Part shown: positions 22,194 through 41,341 of the stretch, piece after piece
Numbering within the stretch: the first letter of the stretch is position 1
Layout: each line of letters opens with the position of its first letter
Notes under the pieces: model-generated
What the model was told of the DNA's origin: nothing
What the model saw: only the letters and a program-made list of their open reading frames with translations
Database searches by the model: none
Virus record (IMG/VR): IMGVR_UViG_3300028780_000001
Reading direction: 5' to 3' (one strand)
Source of the DNA: a virus
Length of the DNA stretch: 64,000 nt
Made by a program: the position numbers and the translations under genes

Positions 22194-22521
22194 ACGAATA
22201 ACTCACATACTGCGGCGCTTCGAGCCCGGCCGCGAACTTTGCGACTTCCTCTTTGGTCGGCTGCACGATCTTGAACGACACTTCGCGCGCCGGTTTCATC
22301 GGCCACACCGACAGACACCACGCTTGCGGATTGTTTGCGGAGGCATCATGTGAGCGCTCGACGCAGTTCGCCCAACGACCCATTGCATATTCGAACGCGA
22401 CGTCGATCGAAGACGCCTTGACGCAGTCAATCACCTTTCCCGTTTCGCCGTCATTCCGTGACTTCCGCACGACATACCATTCGATCGACCTGGCGTCCAT
22501 AATCCTTTCTTTATCAATCAT
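22177..22521 (-). CDS. hypothetical protein
   Basis: ATGA overlap with upstream gene. Confidence 0.5.
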   Translation of the reverse strand: MIDKERIMDARSIEWYVVRKSRNDGETGKVIDCVKASSIDVAFEYAMGRWANCVERSHDASANNPQAWCLSVWPMKPAREVSFKIVQPTKEEVAKFAAGLEAPQYVSYSFDARI

Positions 22522-23726
22522 TTGACAATCTCCGAATATTCAGATAATGCAAAGTCCTGTTGCTGGCGGTTGCGGATTTCCAGCAGGTCGGTGATGTAAC
22601 GTATCACGATGTAATCGACAAATGTCGACCAGGTGCGTTTGTTGGTCTTGCGACAGGTGTCATGCGCGCAACCGAACACGTAGTCGTATTCGGCGCCGGG
22701 AATGCGATCGCGGAAGTAGGCGCCTCCGGTATCGCCGTTAGAGTGCTCGTCTCCCCACGGGCATTGAATGCGGTACTTGCCGCTCATGTTCTGGACGACG
22801 GCTCCGTTCGAGCCCTCACCCATTTGCATGTCGTCAAGGATTTTGACGGCCAGCTTCAGCCAATAGTGATTGAACCAGTCGTCGATATCGGCGTTGGCGA
22901 GTTCAGATTCGCTTCGGACCTTTGCGACGGGCTTGACCACTGAAAATCCAAAGCGTGCTGCGATATGAGCAATTCCATACCGTCTCGCATAGTCTGCACA
23001 AACCAGTCGAGCTCGATACGGATTTTCTCCCGCTGCTCCGGTGTCATTTGATAAGGGATACTTAAGGGTTCCATCAGGCTTACGTTTGTTATTGATCCCC
23101 ACGGGCATCCGGCCATAGCGCGAGACGTCTCGAATCGTGGTGTCTCCGCCCTTTTTGACAAGTACTCCCGCGACGAATCCGGTAAGGAACGCTTTAAACT
23201 GAACCATGTCGGCGCAAGGCTCATCCAGGAAGTACCAGCATTGATAGTTGTTGGGGGAAGTCTCAACGATGGCAGTAGGCTCAAGTACTCGTCGAATATC
23301 GTCAAGTCCGAGTCCGCCTTTGGACCCAGTGCCTGTGCCGACATCGTCAACCATGAGTGCAAGCCCATGGCCGAAAGACTGTTCGCCGCGCCAGTAGCGC
23401 ATTTGTCCGGTGCGCGGGTTGGGTGTTTTGATGGACGATGAAATGCACGCATAGCAGTTGTCGTTCCCATTGATGTACTTGCCGTCTGACCACGCGACCG
23501 GCCACCATCCGGCATTCAGTTTCTTGCCGTCCGCGTCGACCTGTACCGTTGCTTCCCTGGCATAACCAACCATCACCCGCTCTTCTTCGGGTATGCCCCT
23601 ACCGAGTTCTCGAAGAAACTCTTCGGCCATGGCTACCTGTTCACGCAAGTTCAATTTCTGGTCCCTTTCTAGTCTTTCGTCGACAAGTGGCGATCTTACG
23701 CTACCGCTTTTCGGTAAGCAATACAT
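22518..23726 (-). CDS. primase-polymerase-like protein with C-terminal Cys/His cluster
   Basis: LMVDDVG, VETSPNNYQCWYF (AEP-like by eye), CPWGDEHS...CAHDTC; ORF extends to 23891 but that would overlap the divergent gene and promoters. Confidence 0.45.
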   Translation of the reverse strand: MYCLPKSGSVRSPLVDERLERDQKLNLREQVAMAEEFLRELGRGIPEEERVMVGYAREATVQVDADGKKLNAGWWPVAWSDGKYINGNDNCYACISSSIKTPNPRTGQMRYWRGEQSFGHGLALMVDDVGTGTGSKGGLGLDDIRRVLEPTAIVETSPNNYQCWYFLDEPCADMVQFKAFLTGFVAGVLVKKGGDTTIRDVSRYGRMPVGINNKRKPDGTLKYPLSNDTGAAGENPYRARLVCADYARRYGIAHIAARFGFSVVKPVAKVRSESELANADIDDWFNHYWLKLAVKILDDMQMGEGSNGAVVQNMSGKYRIQCPWGDEHSNGDTGGAYFRDRIPGAEYDYVFGCAHDTCRKTNKRTWSTFVDYIVIRYITDLLEIRNRQQQDFALSEYSEIVK

Positions 23727-23756
23727 AGTTGTGAAAAATTCCCCAACTTTTACCGG

Positions 23757-23847
23757 TTGAAATCTCGACGGTTCTCGACTACTATCCATATGCCCGGTGT
23801 GCGCCGGGTCCGCTTGTTGCGGTGAACACCAAAAGAAAGGCTTAGAA
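23757..23847 (+). promoter_or_regulatory. cassette-type promoter + leader for helicase operon
   Basis: -35 TTGAAA 23757-23762, 17-nt spacer with TCGA 23765/23775, -10 TACTAT 23780-23785; AGAAAGGCTTAGAAA then ATG 23848. Confidence 0.6.
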
Positions 23848-25047
23848 ATGTCAAATATGAGCGACGTGCCCGGCAAGACCTTTTCGTTCAACGAAGGCCA
23901 GCTAGAAGCAATCCGCCTGATAAAGAAGTGGTATAGCGATTACGTATTGGGGCGCACGACGAAGCAGTGTTTCTTCCTGAACGGCGACGCGGGCACGGGC
24001 AAGACGTCGGTCGCGAAGGCTGCTGCGATCGAGTGCATGGGTGGCGAGTCGATGCTGTACCGCGTCAAGTTCATTGCGCCGACGGGTAAGGCTGCGTCGC
24101 GGCTGCGTCAGAAAGGATGTGCGGGCGCCGGTACGCTTCACCAGTTCGTTTATCGCGTGCTGGGTGAAGACGAAGAGGGCGACCCGCAATTTATGGAGAA
24201 GGTGAAGCACGACGAGAATCCGTCGCTCGTGGTGTGTGATGAGATTTCGATGATCACCGCATACGACTTTGGTACTGTCAGGCGTCGCGGTATTCCCATC
24301 CTGCAACTGGGTGACCTGAAGCAGGTACCGCCGGTCAAGGGTACGCCGTGCGTGACGCATCAGGATGCCGATTACACCCTGACCGAGACCATGCGCCAGG
24401 TAGATGAAAACGGCCAGCCCAAGCCATTGTCGAACATTATCCGGGCTGCGATGTTTCTGAGCGAAGGCAAACAGTTGCCGTGTCGCGAGTATGACGACGT
24501 CCAGGTGCGCGCCGGTATGCCGCCAATCGCCGATCTTCTGGCGCACGTCGACGAGAACGCCCAAATCCTGTGTTCGTACAATTCGACTCGCGTCGGCATC
24601 AACACCGACATCAGGAAGGCGCTTGGATTTGACGGCCCCACGCCGCAAGTGGGAGAAAAGGTAATGTGCTGGTTTAATCAGCATGGCAAGAATTTCATGA
24701 ATGGTGAGCAGGGGATCGTGCTGGGGTATCGTGAGCCCGACACGGAAGAGTGCGCCGAGGGCGACGCGCCGCAAATGCTAATGCTTACACTGCGCTCGCT
24801 CACCGACGGCCGTGAGCGTACGGTAAAGTTCAACCCCCTATCGTTCGACGCGGACGACGCGGTTGCCAAGGAAGCGCTCAAGGCGCCCGGTGGATTCCAG
24901 TTCGGGTATTGCTGCACGGCACACAAGGCCCAAGGTTCTGAGTGGGATCGCGTACTCGTGATCGAAGAGCGCATGGGTGATTACGCCAAGTTGGGCTACA
25001 CAAAGGCTACACGGGCTGCGAAGAATCTTCGCTGGTATCGGCCATAG
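23848..25047 (+). CDS. Dda/RecD-like SF1 DNA helicase
   Basis: GDAGTGKTS Walker A, VVCDEISM, TAHKAQGSEWDRVLV. Confidence 0.8.
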   Translation: MSNMSDVPGKTFSFNEGQLEAIRLIKKWYSDYVLGRTTKQCFFLNGDAGTGKTSVAKAAAIECMGGESMLYRVKFIAPTGKAASRLRQKGCAGAGTLHQFVYRVLGEDEEGDPQFMEKVKHDENPSLVVCDEISMITAYDFGTVRRRGIPILQLGDLKQVPPVKGTPCVTHQDADYTLTETMRQVDENGQPKPLSNIIRAAMFLSEGKQLPCREYDDVQVRAGMPPIADLLAHVDENAQILCSYNSTRVGINTDIRKALGFDGPTPQVGEKVMCWFNQHGKNFMNGEQGIVLGYREPDTEECAEGDAPQMLMLTLRSLTDGRERTVKFNPLSFDADDAVAKEALKAPGGFQFGYCCTAHKAQGSEWDRVLVIEERMGDYAKLGYTKATRAAKNLRWYRP

Positions 25048-26366: not shown

Positions 26367-26396
26367 TTTACACGTTACGCCGGATTAGTTTACAAT
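26367..26396 (+). promoter_or_regulatory. sigma70-like promoter
   Basis: TTTACA 26367-26372, 18-nt spacer, TACAAT 26391-26396. Confidence 0.55.
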
Positions 26397-26426
26397 TCGA
26401 CCCAATGTAATCTATTGGGGTTGATC

Positions 26427-26837
26427 ATGATCGACGAGCAAAAGGCGCGCAAGCTCGAAGCGCTCGAAGAAATTCGACGCATGCGTGAAGAGAACAGAAA
26501 GAAGGATGCCGAAGAACGTCGATCAAACCTGATCAAGAAAGCCAAAGAACGCGACCAGGCCATTCGTGACCGTCACGACCGAAACATAGAAGGTAACCGC
26601 CGTCGACGCGGAGCGATTGGCGTATTCTGGACTAGCAGGGGTATTACCAAGCTTCACCCTTACTCGACGCGGGCCATGATCGTGCGATGGATGCGCGAGC
26701 ACCTTGCCGAAGGGCAATCGATCGATATCGACGAGCTTCACAAGAAGTGCTCGCCCTTCCTGTACGGCGCCAAGATTCGACAGCACCTGGTTCGCCTCGA
26801 AGAGTTCGGCCATATCGAGTACGTATTTAAAACGTAA
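26427..26837 (+). CDS. coiled-coil + winged-helix-like protein
   Basis: Charged N-terminal helix; C-terminal IRQHLVRLEEFGHIEY wing-like segment. Confidence 0.5.
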   Translation: MIDEQKARKLEALEEIRRMREENRKKDAEERRSNLIKKAKERDQAIRDRHDRNIEGNRRRRGAIGVFWTSRGITKLHPYSTRAMIVRWMREHLAEGQSIDIDELHKKCSPFLYGAKIRQHLVRLEEFGHIEYVFKT

Positions 26838-26846
26838 GGAATCCTT

Positions 26847-27188
26847 ATGAGAATCAAGACTCTCACGATTGCAGAAGCCAAGGTCGCTCGTGAGTCGTGG
26901 CGCCGTACGTTCGCCCTGTTTCCTGTCAGGGTTGCCGATGGGGAATGGCGCTGGCTTGAGTTCGTCGAGCGTAGAGAACTGTCGACGGTATCGAGATATG
27001 TAAGAACCTTTACGGTTCAGCATCGCGCGCCCGGCGCTGTCGATTTTTACCCGCCCTACCCTTGGCTCGTCGGAGACGGTCGTAACCGTATTTGCAATCA
27101 GGATTTTGAAGTTGAACAGCGCCGCTCCAACCGAGACCGACCTGAATTCCCCAAATCAGAAATCATAAAGGATCATCGTGCAAGCTAA
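26847..27188 (+). CDS. hypothetical protein
   Basis: AAGGAATCC RBS then ATG. Confidence 0.5.
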   Translation: MRIKTLTIAEAKVARESWRRTFALFPVRVADGEWRWLEFVERRELSTVSRYVRTFTVQHRAPGAVDFYPPYPWLVGDGRNRICNQDFEVEQRRSNRDRPEFPKSEIIKDHRAS

Positions 27189-27756
27189 TGACCGACCGCT
27201 TTACATCTTCGATCTTGACGGGACATTGGCCCTGATCGATCACCGACGACCGCTTGTCGAGGCGCCGTATATTTTCGTCGGTGACGCCGCGAATACGCAC
27301 TCGATCCATGACCCGAATCACCCGCGCAAGTACAAGACGATCGACGGGATGGTGTATCAGCAAGACCCCAATTTCAAGCCGGATTGGTCCGCGTTCTATG
27401 ACGCGTGCCACCTGGACGTGCCGAACATGCCGGTCGTGCGCACATTCAACCAGCTTTACACGATCGGCGCCGAACTCATGATCTGGTCGGGTCGCGAGGA
27501 TAGCGTTCAGGATAAGTCGATTCAATGGCTGTCGCGTGTCCTGAACATTCACGGCCATATGCTCGCGCAAATGCTCAGGATGCGCCCAACCGGCGACTAC
27601 ACGCCCGACGAGCAGCTTAAGCGCAAATGGCTCAACCAGCTTCAGCCGTCGCAGCGTCAACGCCTGACCGCCGTTTTCGACGATCGAGACAAGGTCGTAA
27701 AGATGTGGCGCGGCGAAGGCGTTACGTGCTTTCAGGTGGCGCCGGGAGAATTCTAG
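27178..27756 (+). CDS. HAD phosphatase, polynucleotide-kinase 3'-phosphatase-like
   Basis: Motif I IFDLDGTL; motif IV VFDDRDKVVKMWRGEGVTCFQV. Confidence 0.7.
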   Translation: MQANDRPLYIFDLDGTLALIDHRRPLVEAPYIFVGDAANTHSIHDPNHPRKYKTIDGMVYQQDPNFKPDWSAFYDACHLDVPNMPVVRTFNQLYTIGAELMIWSGREDSVQDKSIQWLSRVLNIHGHMLAQMLRMRPTGDYTPDEQLKRKWLNQLQPSQRQRLTAVFDDRDKVVKMWRGEGVTCFQVAPGEF

Positions 27757-27811
27757 TCATAGCACGAAATAATATCGATCATCAATTTTAACATTACTAC
27801 CAGGATAAATA

Positions 27812-28033
27812 ATGTTCTCACTACTAATCACAACCCTTAACGCAACGACGACCAACGGCAATCGCAAGTCTCCGCCGCGCCTGATCCCGGTAGGCTCGCA
27901 CACCACATCGTTTATGTCGGAAGAGTTACGAGAAGCAGCGATTACTGCGATCGACAAGTACAACGCCGATCGCTACAGCGAGGCTGTTGCGCATATCGTC
28001 GGCCATATCTCGTACATGTACGTGCGCCTGTAA
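27812..28033 (+). CDS. hypothetical protein
   Basis: ATG ORF after AT-rich gap. Confidence 0.4.
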   Translation: MFSLLITTLNATTTNGNRKSPPRLIPVGSHTTSFMSEELREAAITAIDKYNADRYSEAVAHIVGHISYMYVRL

Positions 28034-28066
28034 ATCGTCGCGAATCGTAACAATCAAGGAATCCTC

Positions 28067-29137
28067 ATGAATCAACCAATCAAGCGCGAAATGTCCGGTC
28101 GTATCGTCGTGATTAACATCGACGGCTGTATCAGTGACGATCGCTGGCGCCGGGCTCGCGTACCGGAAGGTGCCAATCAACCCGAACACTTCGCGCACTA
28201 TCACGCTGGCGCAAGCGACGATCCACCGTTGCATTTCGGTTCGGCCATTCTCATGAATCACATCGCTAACGGCGATTTCATCGTTTTCGCGACCGGTCGC
28301 TATGCGAAAGAGGCGGAATCGACCGCCGCATGGATTAGCCGGAATTTCCGTATCGAGCCGGTTACCGACTTTTCCATCCTCATGCGCGCCGACGAAGACC
28401 AACGCCCGGTCGTCGAAGTGAAGCGAGAGTTTGCCGCATACCTGAATAATTCGTTCTGCCAACAGAAGGGAATGAAAGTCGTCGCGGCATACGACAACCG
28501 TCGGGACGTTGTTGAAGTCTATCGCGAAGCCGGATTCGAATCGACCATCCTGAACGAGAACGGTGAGTTCGTCCCGTATGAAGGCGACGGCGACGACCAG
28601 AAGGCGTCGAGCGATCAACCGCTGGTTCCGACCGGCCTGCACGTACCATCGATTCAGACCGTTCGGAACGTACCGTTGCCTACCGAAATCAGAATAAACG
28701 ACTTGGTGAACGTTTCAACAATGAACACGAGCGGCGCGGAGAACAGTGTTGCGCGCGACGGGTTCGAAAAGAATATTGCCGAACTCGTCGCGTCGATCGG
28801 TTCAATAGGCTCTCTCGGCGTCGCGCTCGACGCGGGCGTTATGAAGGATGTCGGGATTCCATCGGCGCTCCCACTCGCGGAAAAAGTCGACTATAGCAAC
28901 CGGAAGCACTCGCACTATTTCAAGGACGTTCGACACCTTGATTACGTCGACGTCTACCGCGTACTGCAACTGTTCAACGTCACGGACAACGCAATCGGAC
29001 ACGCGATCAAGAAACTTCTTGTCGCCGGTTGTCGCGGCTCGAAGCCCAAAAACAGGGATATCTCCGAGGCAATCGACTCTTTGGAGCGCTGGCTCGAACT
29101 GAACGCCGAAGACTTTTTCAACCAGAACGCGACATAG
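28067..29137 (+). CDS. fusion: degenerate HAD/PNK-phosphatase-like domain + C-terminal small helical nucleotide-hydrolase-associated (DUF3310-like) domain
   Basis: VINIDGCI (Asp nucleophile is Asn), AAYDNRRDVVEVYREAGF; C-terminal HSHYFKDV...GHAIKKLLVAGCRGSKPKNRDISEAIDSLERWLE. Confidence 0.55.
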   Translation: MNQPIKREMSGRIVVINIDGCISDDRWRRARVPEGANQPEHFAHYHAGASDDPPLHFGSAILMNHIANGDFIVFATGRYAKEAESTAAWISRNFRIEPVTDFSILMRADEDQRPVVEVKREFAAYLNNSFCQQKGMKVVAAYDNRRDVVEVYREAGFESTILNENGEFVPYEGDGDDQKASSDQPLVPTGLHVPSIQTVRNVPLPTEIRINDLVNVSTMNTSGAENSVARDGFEKNIAELVASIGSIGSLGVALDAGVMKDVGIPSALPLAEKVDYSNRKHSHYFKDVRHLDYVDVYRVLQLFNVTDNAIGHAIKKLLVAGCRGSKPKNRDISEAIDSLERWLELNAEDFFNQNAT

Positions 29138-29318: not shown

Positions 29319-29603
29319 ATGACAGATAAAGCATGGTCTATCGATAGCGAAGAAGAGTTGCGCAATACTCAACTTCGTCTGCAGGAACTGAAGCGTCAGA
29401 AGGATATGTCGACGGCGCGGATTCACGACAAGATCGGAAAGTACATCGACAAGACCGTTGCGGGTCACGAACTGGATTTGAGAGGGGTCAATGACTTTCT
29501 GGTTGTCCATCGTTGGGAACTGATCAATATCCTGACCGAGGGCGAGTATGCGAAACTCTTGCAGTTTCGCGCCCTTTCATTGGAACAGACCGAGAATGAC
29601 TGA
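29319..29603 (+). CDS. hypothetical protein
   Basis: ATG after leader. Confidence 0.55.
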   Translation: MTDKAWSIDSEEELRNTQLRLQELKRQKDMSTARIHDKIGKYIDKTVAGHELDLRGVNDFLVVHRWELINILTEGEYAKLLQFRALSLEQTEND

Positions 29604-29913
29604 ACGTACACGTCGAGCGCTCGCGCGTCGCGATTTTTTCAAGGGATACACACCGAACAGGCCGTCGGCAATCGCCAATTCTTTCGGTGCACCGATTCAT
29701 AAGCCGCTGTGCATCCGCAGCATGCGCCAGTATTATCGCGCCGTGAAGCTTCACAACGAGCGTGCTACTGCCGCGAGCCCGAACGGAGAAAACCTCCTTC
29801 ACATGCTGCGCGGGCAATCGCCTCATGACCATTTGAAGGACATGTCGAGTAGCCGGATTGCTCGTGACGTTCGAGACGCAAAGCGCCGCATGAGGATCGA
29901 TCATGCTGTTTAG
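29596..29913 (+). CDS. hypothetical basic protein
   Basis: Internal ATG 29596 of ORF 29548-29913. Confidence 0.45.
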   Translation: MTERTRRALARRDFFKGYTPNRPSAIANSFGAPIHKPLCIRSMRQYYRAVKLHNERATAASPNGENLLHMLRGQSPHDHLKDMSSSRIARDVRDAKRRMRIDHAV

Positions 29914-30666: not shown

Positions 30667-30854
30667 GTATGCAATATCTAAATGGCGGGTTCGAAGTGCT
30701 CGTTATCATGGCGCTTTTGCCGGACGGAAAAATTGCAGTGTGCGACGTTGATCGTGCGGGCGATGATCCGCTTGTTTCTATGGATGGCGCGCGACGTTTC
30801 GAGGTTGCAATCCAGTTTCCGCAGAAAGAAATCACGCGAGTAGAGGCAAAATGA
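30663..30854 (+). CDS. hypothetical protein
   Basis: ATGA overlaps on both sides. Confidence 0.45.
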   Translation: MSMQYLNGGFEVLVIMALLPDGKIAVCDVDRAGDDPLVSMDGARRFEVAIQFPQKEITRVEAK

Positions 30855-33682
30855 TCCAGTTCCCCCAATTGCGGGTCCGTACCGGCTTCAGCTTCAAGAA
30901 GGCATACGGACACCTTGACGACGTCACGGAACGCCTTCAGGCGATCAATACGGGGTCCGCCGGTATCGTCGACGCGGGCACATGGGGCCATGTGAAGTAC
31001 GAAGATGCCATGAAGAAAGCGGGTATCACGCCGATGTTCGGCGCCGAACTCCCGGTGATCACTGAAGGTTCCGACTTCAAGCCGCGCGCCTGGGTACTCG
31101 CGAAGGATACGCGTAAGCTGTACAACATCACGTCGCGAGCCGAACGCAACGGCGGTGTATCTGCTGTCGAACTGGCGCATTCGCGAGAAGGGCTAATCAG
31201 GTTTATGGGCGGCGCAATCCACGCACCGCACGGCGCCTTCGATTACGTCGATATCAACCCTGCGTCGATCACGCATGCGCTCAAGGCGGTTCGCTACGCG
31301 CGGCGTTTCAACATGCCAATGGTGCTTACATCGTACAACGACATGCCCGACTACAGGCATGAGTCGGACGCGTACGCATGGGAGGTTCGACAGTCTGTCG
31401 GGCCGCGCATCATTTCGGATGTCGGCGCGCTGCATGAATACCTGGTTGAGGATGCCGGTATCATGACGAACGCGGAATTTACCGACGCCGTCTATAGCAC
31501 ACATGCGATCGCCGATCAATTGAAAGACGTCAAGCTTCAGAAGGCACCACTGATCGAACTCGAAGGCGATATGGTCGCAGAAGCGCGCGAGGGCATGCGA
31601 GAACGCCTGGCGCTGGGGCACATCAAGGAATGGACACCTGAATATGAAGCGCGCTTCAATAGCGAAATTGAAATTATCAAGGCGAAAGCGTTTGACTCTT
31701 ACTTTCTGTGCGTGGCGGACCTTATCCGCTTCGCAAAAAAGAAGATGCTCGTTGGCCCGGCGCGCGGCTCGTCGGCCGGTTCACTCATTTGCTATCTACT
31801 TAGAATTACTGAAGTTGATCCGATCAAATATGGCCTTCTCTTCTATCGGTTCATTGACATCAGTCGTTCAGACTTCCCGGATATCGACATCGACTTCGCC
31901 GACACTAAACGTTACATGGTGTTTGACTACCTGAAGGAAAAGTACGGTGAACAAAACGTATCTAAGCTTGGAAACGTCAGTTTCCTTAAAGGACTGTCGA
32001 CGCTTGAAAAAGTCCGTCAAAAGTTTGCGCTCCCGTTTAGTGCGACGGACCAGGTTAAAGCCTCGCTTGTTGATTACCCTGAAGGCGACCCGCGCTATGG
32101 TTTCGCTGTACAGGACACCATTAATCAGACAGAAGCGGGGCGCGAGTTTGGTCGACGCTTTGAATCGGCCGCCGCTTGCGCGAGTGCTATCGAAGTCCAT
32201 CCGTCGCATAGCAGCGTACACGCGGCTGGGATCATCGTGTGTAACGACCCAATTAGCGACTATGCGACCGTCACGGCGGACGGCATTGCGCAAGTCGATA
32301 AACGCGATGCTGAAAAGCTTAACCTGCTCAAAATTGATGCGCTGGGCCTTCGGACCCTTGGCGTGATCGACGACGCCAATTGCGTTACGCACGACGAACT
32401 GTATGCGCTTGAACCTGTCGATCCGGCCTGTTTCAAGATGCTGGACGACGATAAGGTCGGCGGTCTGTTTCAGTTCGAGGGCGACGCGGTGCGCTCGATC
32501 ACGCGCCAAATGACGATTGACCGTTTCGACCAGATTGATCACATCACATCACTGGCGCGACCCGGCCCGATGTCGTCTGGTATGGCGAACGCCTATATCA
32601 GGAGGGCGAACGGAAAGGAGTCCGTAACATACGACATTCCGCAGCTTCGACCCATTCTGGAATCGACGCACGGCGTTATCGTGTATCAGGAACAGATTAT
32701 GTCGATCGTGAAGGACGTCGCCGGGTTCGACTGGGAACAGACATCCTCGATCCGCCGTGCGATGGGCAAGAAGATGGGCGAAGAGTACTTTAATAAAAAA
32801 CTCGAAGAGTTCGTCGATGGATGTGCCAAAACGTCAGGTGTTGCGCGCGACGACGCGACGAAGATATGGCAACAAATGCGCACGTTCGGCGCGTACGGCT
32901 TCAACCGGTCCCACAGCGTGAGTTACGGTCTTGTCACGTACTGGACGCTGTACATGAAGGTGTATCACCGTCTGGATTATGCAGCGGCTTCCTTGCGCGC
33001 CGCCAAGGACGACGAACAGGTATATGCAATCCTTCGAGAACTCGCCGCAGAAGGGGTTCCGTACACACCGATGGACCCTGACTATTCGGAAACTAACTGG
33101 ATGGTCGCAGCGGGCCGTCTAGTGGGCGGCATACAAAACGCCAAGGGATACGGCCCGGTTACCGCGCTGAAGTATATCGAGAAGCGTCGACTAGGAATGA
33201 TCACAGAGAAAGATCGGGCCAAGCTGGCGAAAGCAGAAGTCAAGTTCTCCGATATCGCAGAAGCACGGACGCGATGGGGCTGGGCCTATGATGACCCGAC
33301 GGCGATCGGCGTCACGAGCGGAAACCCCATCGTCACAATTAAAGAGGTTCGCGAGCGCGACGACTGTCTTATAATCGTCAAGCTTCGAAAGAAATCACTT
33401 GAAGACGAGAACGACCCTGTTCGACAGAAGCGTCGCGTCGAAAATGGAAAGGCCGAAAAGTATCGAGGGGCGTCGCAATTTCTAGACATGCACTGTGTCG
33501 ATGATAGCGTTGACTCCCCTGTAAAGGTTCGTTTGCGCCCGAAAGAATTTATGACGCACGGCGCATCGATCGCAAAGAACGATCCGGTAGGCGCATGGTA
33601 CCTCGTAAAAGCATGGCGTATCGGCAGTGTCTTCATTGTTAAAAACATCATTCGCATCGACGATAAGGACTGGACCCAGTGA
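30851..33682 (+). CDS. dnaE: DNA polymerase III alpha-type (DnaE-like) replicative polymerase
   Basis: GPARGSSAGSLICYLLRITEVDP, FPDIDIDF, N-terminal PHP-like region; 943 aa. Confidence 0.9.
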   Translation: MIQFPQLRVRTGFSFKKAYGHLDDVTERLQAINTGSAGIVDAGTWGHVKYEDAMKKAGITPMFGAELPVITEGSDFKPRAWVLAKDTRKLYNITSRAERNGGVSAVELAHSREGLIRFMGGAIHAPHGAFDYVDINPASITHALKAVRYARRFNMPMVLTSYNDMPDYRHESDAYAWEVRQSVGPRIISDVGALHEYLVEDAGIMTNAEFTDAVYSTHAIADQLKDVKLQKAPLIELEGDMVAEAREGMRERLALGHIKEWTPEYEARFNSEIEIIKAKAFDSYFLCVADLIRFAKKKMLVGPARGSSAGSLICYLLRITEVDPIKYGLLFYRFIDISRSDFPDIDIDFADTKRYMVFDYLKEKYGEQNVSKLGNVSFLKGLSTLEKVRQKFALPFSATDQVKASLVDYPEGDPRYGFAVQDTINQTEAGREFGRRFESAAACASAIEVHPSHSSVHAAGIIVCNDPISDYATVTADGIAQVDKRDAEKLNLLKIDALGLRTLGVIDDANCVTHDELYALEPVDPACFKMLDDDKVGGLFQFEGDAVRSITRQMTIDRFDQIDHITSLARPGPMSSGMANAYIRRANGKESVTYDIPQLRPILESTHGVIVYQEQIMSIVKDVAGFDWEQTSSIRRAMGKKMGEEYFNKKLEEFVDGCAKTSGVARDDATKIWQQMRTFGAYGFNRSHSVSYGLVTYWTLYMKVYHRLDYAAASLRAAKDDEQVYAILRELAAEGVPYTPMDPDYSETNWMVAAGRLVGGIQNAKGYGPVTALKYIEKRRLGMITEKDRAKLAKAEVKFSDIAEARTRWGWAYDDPTAIGVTSGNPIVTIKEVRERDDCLIIVKLRKKSLEDENDPVRQKRRVENGKAEKYRGASQFLDMHCVDDSVDSPVKVRLRPKEFMTHGASIAKNDPVGAWYLVKAWRIGSVFIVKNIIRIDDKDWTQ

Positions 33683-39723: not shown

Positions 39724-40457
39724 TCAAACACGCCGGTCACATCCTGGCGTTCGACAAAGAACGCTTCGGAATGGGTCAGTTAGGCCCGCTCGTTAGCATG
39801 AATCCGAAGTCGTTCTTTGAAGCGGCGTACGCGTCGCTTTTCATCGGGCGCCGTCACGAACTCGAAACCGACGAACGCTTCGGGCAGTTTCTTCCCTATG
39901 TGATTCTGCGTAGGATCGCTCAGGACGGCTCCGTGACGCTGTTCGAATACCAGCGCACCAAAAAAGTCGGGGAAGACCGCCTAGGTGGCAAGAAATCGTT
40001 CGGCGTAGGCGGTCACGTCGATTTGGCCGATGTATGGATCGACGACAACAGCGTTATTGATGTTGTCGCCACGACGGCGCATGCGATCGCCCGCGAAATG
40101 AACGAGGAAATCCTGTTCAGACTCGATCCGCAAGACCCGGTCGAGTCGATAACCATCACGTTCGATGAAGCTCGATACGGAAAGGCTAAAAGCGGCGAGC
40201 GAGAATTCGAGTTCGAGCGAAACTCACTCGTGCCGATTTTTCACGGGATCATCAATGACCTGTCGGACCCCGTCGGCCGGGTTCACTTCGGCTGCGTTTT
40301 CACGATCGACATTCCGGCGTATCTTGAGCCCATGTGCCGCGAGTCGGAACTGATCACCATCGGTATGCGACCGGTATCGGACATCTCAGGCGACGACCTT
40401 GAAAACTGGTCGCGGCTGCTCCTGAACGACATCGATTTTCTTAAGGTGACTGCGTGA
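39720..40457 (+). CDS. Nudix-like hydrolase (divergent)
   Basis: GGHVDL...AIAREMNEEILF resembles a Nudix box; ATGA overlap. Confidence 0.35.
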   Translation: MIKHAGHILAFDKERFGMGQLGPLVSMNPKSFFEAAYASLFIGRRHELETDERFGQFLPYVILRRIAQDGSVTLFEYQRTKKVGEDRLGGKKSFGVGGHVDLADVWIDDNSVIDVVATTAHAIAREMNEEILFRLDPQDPVESITITFDEARYGKAKSGEREFEFERNSLVPIFHGIINDLSDPVGRVHFGCVFTIDIPAYLEPMCRESELITIGMRPVSDISGDDLENWSRLLLNDIDFLKVTA

Positions 40458-41341
40458 GCGAATTTCAGTGGCGAAAGCCCATGAAGGCCGAAGACTTCGT
40501 CGACGAAGCCCTTGTGTTTCCGTATTACGCGTCGGTCAAGCTCGACGGTTACCGGACCATCGTCGACGAATGTATCGCGCGCACATCGAGCGGCGCTCCG
40601 ATCGGTAATGATTTCGTCCGCGATTTCCTGTCGCACGAAAGCCTTGAAGGGCTCGACGGCGAACTGATCGTCGGAGCATGGAACGACAAGCGCGCGTTTC
40701 ACAACACCAGCGGCCCGGTTCGACGGAAGCACGACAATCCCGATTTTCGCCTGTTCCTGTTCGACGATCGTACGCGGCCGGGCGATACGTTCTCGACACG
40801 CTTCAGCATGCTTAAGCATCGCGTATCGGTGATCCAGTCCAGGCACAAACGCCCGATCGAAGCGCGAATCGAAGTTATCCCGCAAACGCTGATATATAAC
40901 CGGGAAGAATTATCCCGCTTCGAAGAGTCCTCGATTATGGGCGGTTTCGAAGGCGTCATGCTTACGCACCCTGAAGGGCATTACAAGTTCGGTCGTTCGA
41001 CGTTGAACGAGAACCTTCGACTAAAGGTGAAACGTTTTATCACCGAAGAGGCGCAAATCGTCGGCTACGTCGAGCAGTTACGCACGCCTGAAGGTGGCAT
41101 GATCGCTAACGAGCATACCGGAATGGTTGGCGCGTTCAAGGTGCATTCCGCGAAGTGGGGCGATTTCGACATTCAGGCGACGTCGCTTTCTTTCAAAGAG
41201 CGCAAAGAGGCATTCGACAATTTCGGCGCGATGTACAACCGCCAGATTGCATCGTTTGAATACTTCCCGCATGGCACGATTGACCGGCCGCGCCATGGCA
41301 TTTTCCGGGGAATCCGGGGCAAAGAGGACATGGCAGAATGA
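40454..41341 (+). CDS. ATP-dependent DNA ligase
   Basis: Motif I VKLDGYR, III LDGELIV, IV FEGVMLTHP, V LRLKVKRF. Confidence 0.8.
   Translation: MSEFQWRKPMKAEDFVDEALVFPYYASVKLDGYRTIVDECIARTSSGAPIGNDFVRDFLSHESLEGLDGELIVGAWNDKRAFHNTSGPVRRKHDNPDFRLFLFDDRTRPGDTFSTRFSMLKHRVSVIQSRHKRPIEARIEVIPQTLIYNREELSRFEESSIMGGFEGVMLTHPEGHYKFGRSTLNENLRLKVKRFITEEAQIVGYVEQLRTPEGGMIANEHTGMVGAFKVHSAKWGDFDIQATSLSFKERKEAFDNFGAMYNRQIASFEYFPHGTIDRPRHGIFRGIRGKEDMAE

Follow-up and report, generated by a model that had tools for sequence, protein, structure and literature searches.

Catalysis by HAD phosphatases proceeds through a covalent aspartyl-phosphate on the Asp of motif I, and the Mg2+ ion is held by this Asp, by the backbone of the residue at Asp+2 and by the acids of motif IV. 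Asp-to-Asn mutants of these enzymes are inactive, bind substrate and are employed as traps. Here we describe gene B, which lies in a 64,000-nucleotide stretch of viral DNA (IMG/VR record IMGVR_UViG_3300028780_000001, referred to as the window) and encodes a HAD fold in which Asn replaces the catalytic Asp in both motif I and motif IV. The fold is that of the 3'-phosphatase domain of T4 Pnkp (5UJ0, 1LTQ), with the motifs at the same positions. In our alignments, D165, D167, R176, R213, K258, D277 and D278 of T4 Pnkp correspond to N17, D19, R28, R78, K119, D143 and N144 of B. Unlike T4 Pnkp, B has no P-loop kinase domain and carries Asn at the nucleophile and at the D278 equivalent, and the sequence similarity between the two is very low (profile E=1).

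The parent family of gene B is PHROG 4889, annotated as 'polynucleotide kinase/phosphorylase' of PB1-like phages; we know of no experimental characterisation of this family. Its member ORF57 of Pseudomonas phage SN (YP_002418865.1; 338 amino acids, phrog_4889) lies directly 5' of the genes for an exonuclease and the DNA polymerase III alpha subunit (Pol III alpha), and consists of FDLDGC...FDDR, an acidic Ala/Pro-rich linker and a helical tail that is common to 104 family members with both catalytic Asp. This PB1-type tail gave sub-threshold matches to DUF6378 in 13 of 14 members (best E=8e-4), and a search for a solved structure of it found none. B shares with PHROG 4889 the slot directly upstream of a DEDDh exonuclease and Pol III alpha, the signature DxDGC, DD..R after motif I, T-[AG]-R, K and YD[DN]R, and the plan of a HAD domain, a low-complexity linker and a small helical C-terminal domain. 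The two-domain plan is thus not new: it pre-exists in PHROG 4889, and both kinds of domain are recognisable. Unlike B, the PHROG 4889 proteins keep both catalytic Asp (104/104) and have a DUF6378-like tail; B matched only profile positions 7-156 of 339 of phrog_4889, short of a full-length match. In phage SN and in metagenomic contig L007 the PHROG 4889 gene also lies near ThyX, whereas the window is without ThyX.

Gene B follows gene A and a short gene of 73 codons, and its product has three parts, a pseudo-HAD domain, a disordered linker and a SaV/DUF3310-like module. These features are listed below, with evidence in parentheses (dN/dS, ratio of nonsynonymous to synonymous substitution rates; pLDDT, predicted local distance difference test).

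27178-27756, plus strand: gene A, HAD phosphatase-like
27812-28033, plus strand: open reading frame (ORF) of 73 amino acids
28067-29137, plus strand: gene B, 356 amino acids
28088-28567, plus strand: pseudo-phosphatase HAD_PNKP domain of B, residues 8-167 (Pfam, Foldseek, dN/dS)
28115-28129, plus strand: motif I of B, N17-I-D19-G-C21, nucleophile Asp replaced by Asn
28490-28501, plus strand: motif IV of B, Y142-D143-N144-R145, second acidic residue replaced by Asn
28568-28891, plus strand: Ser/Thr/Val/Pro/Gly-rich linker of B, residues 168-275 (pLDDT, dN/dS, alignment)
28892-29122, plus strand: C-terminal three-helix module of B, residues 276-352, about 75 amino acids (PHROG 2452/13223)

The original prediction, made from the DNA alone, had placed genes A and B at these coordinates and on this strand, and both were recovered there with all the motifs it quoted, including HSHYFKDV...ERWLE. 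Its proposal that B begins with a HAD domain related to gene A, marked by NIDGC and YDNR, was borne out. The N-terminus of B matched Pfam HAD_PNKP (PF25109) with 33.0 bits (cut-off 27.6, E=7.8e-8) and PHROGs 4889 and 415 at E~2e-20, and direct alignment of A and B gave 24% identity (E=1e-6). The AlphaFold model of B had a pLDDT of 85-93 over residues 11-165, and Foldseek aligned the HAD model with the T4 Pnkp phosphatase 5uj0 at a template-modelling (TM) score of 0.76-0.78 (E=1.5e-6); it also reached 4xrp and 1ltq-type chains, and the best structural neighbours further included bacterial Pnkp1, AphA and Nir2 LNS2. The register of motif I was unambiguous: where B has I-N-I-D-G-C, A has F-D-L-D-G-T and the nearest relatives with an intact motif have F-D-I-D-G-C. 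B therefore lacks the nucleophilic Asp of the HAD_PNKP motif I pattern DxDx[TV], and it lacks the acidic DD pair of motif IV, of which the first Asp is kept. In motif II, T76 is Ser in two orthologues and R78 is invariant, as is K119 of motif III. The Ser/Thr/Val-rich linker that had been noted beforehand, about 105 amino acids long, was predicted to be disordered (pLDDT <50 across residues 170-275), and it varies so much in length and sequence among B orthologues that no alignment was possible. Taken together, these agreements with the original prediction go far past what chance would give.

We then asked how widespread the Asn residues are. A search of 1.84 billion representative proteins with the HAD domain recovered 990 relatives at E<=1e-3, and catalytic positions and tail type were scored in the best 145 of these 990, in 15 earlier homologues and in the window protein (n=161). 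Asp at both positions 17 and 144 (D/D) was found in 104 proteins with a PB1-type helical tail, in 28 short standalone proteins without a tail and in one protein with the window-type tail (P0126). Asn at both positions (N/N) was found in 12 proteins with the window-type tail, plus one partial sequence, and these were exclusively the window protein and its orthologues; the few remaining sequences were partial or odd. Position 17 was Asn in 13/13 clade members versus Asp in 104/104 parent-type members, and the same counts held for position 144. The 12 orthologues of B, at 40-96% identity, have the same architecture and the same two Asn. A comparison of alignment columns between the 13 N/N and the 104 D/D sequences, with conservation set at >=90%, showed that D19, D25, R28, Y45, D52, F74, R78, R107, K119, A141, D143, R145, D147 and Y152 were kept in the N/N clade. 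Only three conserved positions had switched: D17 to N, D144 to N and A77 to G.

Selection was estimated between the window and its closest relative, L079 (dS, the synonymous rate, ~0.31). The dN/dS was 0.06 for the pseudo-HAD domain, 0.03 for the C-terminal domain and 0.39 for the linker, compared to 0.27 for gene A and 0.04 for the 73-amino-acid gene. The pseudo-HAD domain is thus under tighter constraint than its paralogue gene A (0.06 vs 0.27). The low dN/dS and the conservation mark B as a selected pseudo-enzyme, with a catalytic centre that appears to have been neutralised surgically and shows no decay; they strengthen the 'repurposed' half of the earlier suggestion that B is dead or repurposed. 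The alternative that B is a decaying relic, or a chance fusion without a function of its own, can point to the loss of two catalytic residues and to a long, disordered and poorly conserved linker. With both folded domains under such constraint, architecture and both Asn retained in all 12 orthologues and synteny kept in 6 genomes, we regard this as effectively refuted and give it almost no credence; a decaying pseudogene was ruled out on the same grounds of dN/dS and conservation. What is new, as judged from sequence comparison, is the conserved natural Asn/Asn centre itself: no other sequence with it was present among the best 145 representatives and the 15 earlier homologues. A literature search for natural HAD pseudophosphatases found none, and we are not aware of any phage HAD fold in which Asn occupies the position of the nucleophile naturally and is conserved there.

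The invariance of the other active-site residues and the strong purifying selection would also be expected of a working site. B could then still be a hydrolase or transferase with non-canonical chemistry, using D19 or water as the nucleophile, possibly metal-free and on a new substrate. It is established, however, that the motif I Asp is the obligatory nucleophile in every studied HAD phosphatase and that its replacement by Asn inactivates the enzyme, and D144N would further weaken the coordination of Mg2+ and water. We consider continued catalysis by B improbable. HAD folds that bind rather than turn over their ligands have precedents among the structural neighbours of B, namely Nir2 LNS2 with phosphatidic acid or phosphate, and CbbY D10N and Pah2 D148N with ligands. 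These resemble B in keeping the HAD fold for binding, with its phosphoryl pocket intact, and differ from it in being eukaryotic or engineered and in having unrelated partners. Soybean VSP and Tim50 are further cases of non-catalytic or ligand-binding HAD folds.

The census also bears on the origin of B. The original prediction had read A and B as a duplicated phosphatase fold with one dead copy, and this does not hold: B comes from the large two-domain family PHROG 4889, whose members are intact. A metagenomic relative, P0014 (locus L007), has both an intact B and a separate gene-A-like HAD, and since this locus holds both genes, A and B are old paralogues from different PHROGs and not products of a recent duplication. 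The outgroup P0126 places the remaining changes in order. Its contig (L080, 1-1864) has, in this order, part of a gene A (71% identity), a gene homologous to the 73-amino-acid one, a 118-amino-acid gene and a B that combines intact D/D motifs (FDLDGC/YDDS) with a window-type tail, followed by a GIY-YIG gene, the exonuclease and the polymerase. Since an intact HAD domain here carries the new tail, the tail swap preceded inactivation, and the order supported by these sequences is a HAD domain with a DUF6378-like tail, then the tail swap, then the double Asp-to-Asn change. The PB1-type tail was unrelated to the window tail by hhalign (probability 0.1%), which ruled out that the window C-terminal domain is a diverged PB1-type tail, and it was unrelated to DUF3310 as well. 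The combination of an Asn/Asn HAD domain with a swapped SaV-like tail is also new. A tblastn search of the 64-kb window detected no ThyX, PB1-type MazG or DUF4406. The lost catalysis of B may hint at a link to thymidylate metabolism, or to loss of the thymidylate module, in the few genomes available.

Gene A encodes a standalone protein of 192 amino acids with a GTG start and no kinase domain. By its motifs it is a canonical PNKP-type HAD phosphatase, 3'-phosphatase-like, as had been proposed from FDLDGTL and VFDDRDKVVKMWR, both of which are present. The protein is canonical in each of the four HAD motifs (FDLDGT ... SGR ... K ... FDDRD) and matched Pfam HAD_PNKP at E=1e-27, phrog_415 at E=1e-36 and the phosphatase domain of T4 Pnkp (5uj0, 1ltq) at E=4e-11 to 6e-10. 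The aligned pairs with T4 Pnkp are FDLDGT/FDVDGT, SGRE/SGRE, the Lys of motif III and FDDRDKVVKMWR/IDDRTQVVEMWR. Residues 26-74 (27253-27399) form a hypervariable insert after motif I. We compared gene A with its relatives at L078:3927-4499, L007:2318-2908, L002:5003-5524 and L004:5167-5727, and observed that in two relatives the insert holds CxxC...CxxC pairs with a zinc-ribbon-like look. Orthologues of gene A adjoin B in 6 related genomes.

The intervening 73-amino-acid gene (MFSLLITTL...GHISYMYVRL) has AGGA 8 nt upstream of its ATG, just as AAGGA lies 8 nt upstream of the ATG of gene B. Searches against Pfam and PHROG gave no match. In L002 and L004, the gene directly upstream of B is an orthologue with 40-49% identity; L077, L078 and L079 have an ORF of equal size, and L080 has a homologue. 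The order of A, the 73-amino-acid gene and B is kept in 6/6 genomes with an N-type B (window, L002/L003, L004, L077, L078 and L079), and the short protein is likely a functional partner in this conserved cluster. We also observed that the T1-like Escherichia phage ZL19 (L006, 1998-2916) has an intact HAD_PNKP gene (FDFDGTL, WDDS), a 41-amino-acid ORF and a standalone 86-amino-acid gene resembling the C-terminal domain of B, an arrangement that we interpret as the split counterpart of the window fusion.

The C-terminal domain of B belongs to a large family for which Pfam has no model, and seeing it as such a family, probably allied to DUF3310, is likewise new. It matched phrog_2452 (E=2e-29) and phrog_13223 (E=4e-23), and all 54 of 54 homologues matched the same PHROGs; the family spans PHROGs 2452, 13223, 17613 and 18443 among others. 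The domain recurs at 40-70% identity in over 100 metagenomic proteins and in 786 records of isolated phages; a second scan of viral contigs recovered close relatives only (60-70% identity) and added no diversity. The domain is found at the N-terminus, at the C-terminus, in the middle of proteins or as a standalone protein of 76-100 amino acids. Its partners include HNH endonuclease (8/54), MazG/nucleotide pyrophosphohydrolase, hydrolase, RF-1 and PaaA2, and by BFVD name phosphodiesterase and DNA ligase; most have no assigned identity. The family motif [HK]Y...DVY.V...HA[IV]KK.L..G.RG..K...D..E/D is present in the window protein. Thirteen polar or glycine positions within 75 residues (H283, Y284, D295, Y297, H312, K315, K316, G321, R323, G324, D331, E334 and R341) are invariant across proteins with unrelated partners, and this favours a site of ligand binding or catalysis over a mere spacer. 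In the AlphaFold2 model of the domain (pLDDT 87.5), three helices accompany an extended N-terminal stretch, and the G-x-R-G-x-K loop joins helix 2 to helix 3. Against the PDB there was no sequence-profile match and no meaningful fold match, and no MazG-like structure was among the fold matches. Searches of the domain and 20 family members against Pfam and NCBIfam gave no DUF3310, dGTP_diPhyd_N or MazG match.

Several observations concern individual members of this family. The B orthologue P0001, 96% identical to B, is without 13 residues, GCRGSKPKNRDIS, which make up the invariant Gly/Arg/Lys loop; either a deletion of natural origin or an error of assembly could explain this. Several GenBank records give small C-terminal-domain proteins of 76-133 amino acids (L075, L076 and hits H47, H48, H70, H75 and H91) the label 'terminase large subunit', 'terminase ATPase subunit' or 'ATPase'. 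Given their size and neighbours these labels are almost certainly wrong, and a role as small terminase subunits was ruled out, as the proteins sit among small early genes and not beside TerL. In the Escherichia phage WildeMaa (Seuratvirus; L167 1-456), a protein that ends in this domain is encoded directly upstream of QueD. The Seuratvirus group is known for 7-deazaguanine DNA modification. The ZL19 and Seuratvirus links point to nucleotide or nucleic-acid metabolism in general rather than to one reaction.

The original prediction had likened this C-terminal domain both to DUF3310 and to the N-terminal domain of dATP/dGTP diphosphohydrolases. For the latter (PF18909) there was no match at E<=10 and hence no support. 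The resemblance to DUF3310 was suggestive in profile and structure comparisons and absent in Pfam: neither the window domain nor any of the 20 family members matched PF11753 at E<=10, although the positive controls did, with SaV of lactococcal phage sk1 at E=1e-8 and residues 122-184 of T7 gp1.7 at E=4.5e-23. We aligned 23 DUF3310 sequences from viral contigs and 65 C-terminal-domain sequences and compared the two with hhalign, which gave a probability of 79.3-79.6% (usual level 90-95%) and E=1.5e-5 to 1.6e-5 over 65-66 columns. In control runs, none of 40 column shuffles reached this score (best 21.4 vs 30.3) and the reversed alignment scored 8.1. The register was that expected by eye (HY/HY; iDVYrV/IEAIEyI; HAiKKL/GNvlKY; aGgRG.K/RAG.K; Di.EA/DLkKA). 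Including nine divergent sequences of isolated phages brought no higher probability, and comparison with the single SaV sequence gave the right register at a probability of 2%, which is not significant. A Foldseek search of BFVD returned the family itself first and DUF3310, SaV-like or 'nucleotide kinase' names at ranks 39-49 (E 0.08-0.3, probability 0.99-1.0, TM 0.57-0.63); no solved structure of either family was found for comparison. Both are small helical modules of about 60-75 amino acids in which an N-terminal [HK]Y precedes an acidic first helix, the second helix carries K-[KY]-L, the third carries D-x-x-[EK]-A and a Gly/Arg/Lys loop is present; both occur standalone or fused to varied partners in phage early regions. 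The window family differs in its invariants HSHYFKDV, DVYRVL, HA[IV]KKLL and GGRGAGK and in having PHROGs of its own. Overall, the window domain is probably allied to DUF3310.

DUF3310 had also been described as a nucleotide hydrolase module, which is inaccurate: its only biochemically studied member is T7 gp1.7, a nucleotide kinase that adds phosphate to dTMP and dGMP and in which DUF3310 is the sole recognisable domain (PMC9339283, PMC12846349). This raises the possibility that B acts as a nucleotide kinase of the gp1.7 type, or supplies half of a split end-healing enzyme resembling PNKP, in which the DUF3310-like domain would catalyse phosphotransfer and the dead HAD domain would bind the acceptor, a deoxynucleoside monophosphate (dNMP) or nucleic-acid end, and/or dimerise with gene A. 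Alignment to DUF3310 covers the whole C-terminal domain and pairs the HY, K and D..A positions as well as the Gly/Arg/Lys loop, and the invariant G-x-R-G-x(1,2)-K loop resembles a phosphate-binding loop. The phage also encodes an ATP-dependent DNA ligase (40454-41341), which would complete a set of phosphatase, kinase and ligase activities, and elsewhere the domain is joined to MazG, HNH and hydrolases, with ligase and phosphodiesterase among the BFVD names. A kinase nevertheless seems unlikely to us. DUF3310 has never been demonstrated to be the catalytic part of gp1.7, gp1.7 acts on dNMPs and not on 5'-OH ends, and the C-terminal domain does not reach the Pfam DUF3310 model. Moreover, many proteins with the domain are tiny and standalone, and some partners, such as RF-1 and PaaA2, are not nucleotide-related. 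T7 gp1.7 itself is reported to be a roughly 12-mer.

DUF3310 proteins have further been linked to toxicity and host defence. SaV, which is early and toxic, binds the abortive-infection protein AbiV and determines sensitivity to it (PMC8306868); the DUF3310 protein gp47 of mycobacteriophage Waterfoul is strongly cytotoxic (PMC9339283); and the defence protein Avs5 is activated by gp1.7 (PMC11897194). B could accordingly be a host-takeover or anti-defence effector, with a SaV-like module that targets a host factor or is itself a decoy and a pseudo-HAD domain that serves as a sponge for a phosphorylated signalling nucleotide or is incidental. The location of B in the early region fits this idea, and the double Asp-to-Asn change takes two negative charges from the pocket, as expected of a ligand trap. 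On the other hand, B is similar to no known sponge family, it occupies the same conserved replication-module slot as its catalytically intact relatives, and no defence-related neighbours were found; we judge an effector role to be decidedly unlikely.

We favour, at about even confidence, the reading that B serves as a binder or adaptor without hydrolysis, in concert with gene A and the 73-amino-acid protein. In the window lineage, the ancestral tail was exchanged for a three-helix module of the SaV/gp1.7 (DUF3310-like) type, and afterwards both Asp of the catalytic centre became the isosteric Asn. According to our proposal, B would without a nucleophile form no aspartyl-phosphate intermediate and would not hydrolyse its ligand, while the preserved pocket (D19, T76, R78, K119, D143 and R28) would still bind the phosphomonoester of the parent enzymes. 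This ligand would be a (deoxy)nucleoside monophosphate or a nucleic-acid end with a 3' phosphate, and B would then resemble HAD enzymes turned into 'substrate traps' by engineered Asp-to-Asn mutation. The established HAD mechanism, taken with the Asn at the nucleophile position, argues that B cannot hydrolyse, and by analogy with these mutants it probably still binds the family's phosphomonoester ligand. The flexible linker would couple the bound ligand or a partner to the SaV-like module, likely a nucleotide- or phosphate-binding or oligomerising unit or a recruiter of partners, and hydrolysis would be left to the neighbouring canonical phosphatase, gene A. Together, B, gene A and the 73-amino-acid protein would take part in early nucleotide or DNA-end processing ahead of replication.

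Several points weigh against this proposal. In two relatives, gene A departs from the canonical motif IV (FEDRK in L002, FERHD in L004), so a strict model in which A supplies the catalysis fails in some genomes. The loss of activity in B is deduced from the known HAD mechanism, and the PHROG 4889 label 'polynucleotide kinase' is a homology annotation only. The C-terminal domain is a probable remote homologue of DUF3310 whose membership of PF11753 is not demonstrated.

The cluster lies in the early/replication module of the phage (window 23.8-42 kb). Among cultured phages, the PB1-like myophages of Pseudomonas (Pbunavirus) are nearest, sharing 57% identity in Pol III alpha, and megablast found no nucleotide-level match of the region to isolated phages. 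As had been noted before, replication genes, namely the exonuclease and Pol III alpha, lie downstream of B. The other genes of the region, in order, are as follows.

22518-23891, minus strand: primase
23797-25047, plus strand: Dda-like helicase
Between the Dda-like helicase and gene A: several small genes
After gene B and before the exonuclease: ORF of 94 amino acids
29903-30466: DEDDh exonuclease
30851-33682: Pol III alpha
3' of Pol III alpha: helicases
40454-41341: ATP-dependent DNA ligase
Last listed gene of the 23.8-42 kb module: endolysin

The primase and Dda-like helicase genes are divergently transcribed, with their longest ORFs overlapping at 23797-23891, and GC skew is negative across 18-24 kb and positive on either side; the region 22518-25047 may be a strand-switch or regulatory region. 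A sigma-70-like site (26367-26396, 10/12) lies upstream of the ORF at 26415-26837, and a GC stem followed by TTTTTT is present at 29621-29633, just 3' of the ORF at 29319-29603. The two would flank an operon holding A, the 73-amino-acid gene and B. In the promoter and terminator scan of 25-31 kb, the counts of such sites were not above those in shuffled sequence.

Pseudo-enzymes are well documented in eukaryotic signalling and rarely in phages. For B we have the parent, the dead form and, between them, an intermediate in which an intact HAD domain bears the new tail, which amounts to a clean natural experiment in the passage from an enzyme to a binding module. B also gives a handle on two large phage families, PHROG 4889 and the SaV/gp1.7-like helical domain; the latter is present in hundreds of phage genomes and has been linked repeatedly to toxicity and to recognition by host defence (AbiV, Avs5). 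If the Asn variant traps its ligand, purified B could reveal the substrate of the whole family. At its boldest, and as something of a long shot, B would be a natural substrate trap: a 3'-phosphatase fold, catalytically dead, would clamp a nucleic-acid end or a (possibly immune-signalling) nucleotide, phosphorylated in either case, without hydrolysing it. The ligand would then be passed to, or the trap controlled by, a module of the gp1.7/SaV type with a new phosphate-handling fold. If true, B would represent either a new kind of sponge or sensor for nucleotides, or a kinase/phosphatase machine for end healing that has two subunits and is made of non-P-loop parts.

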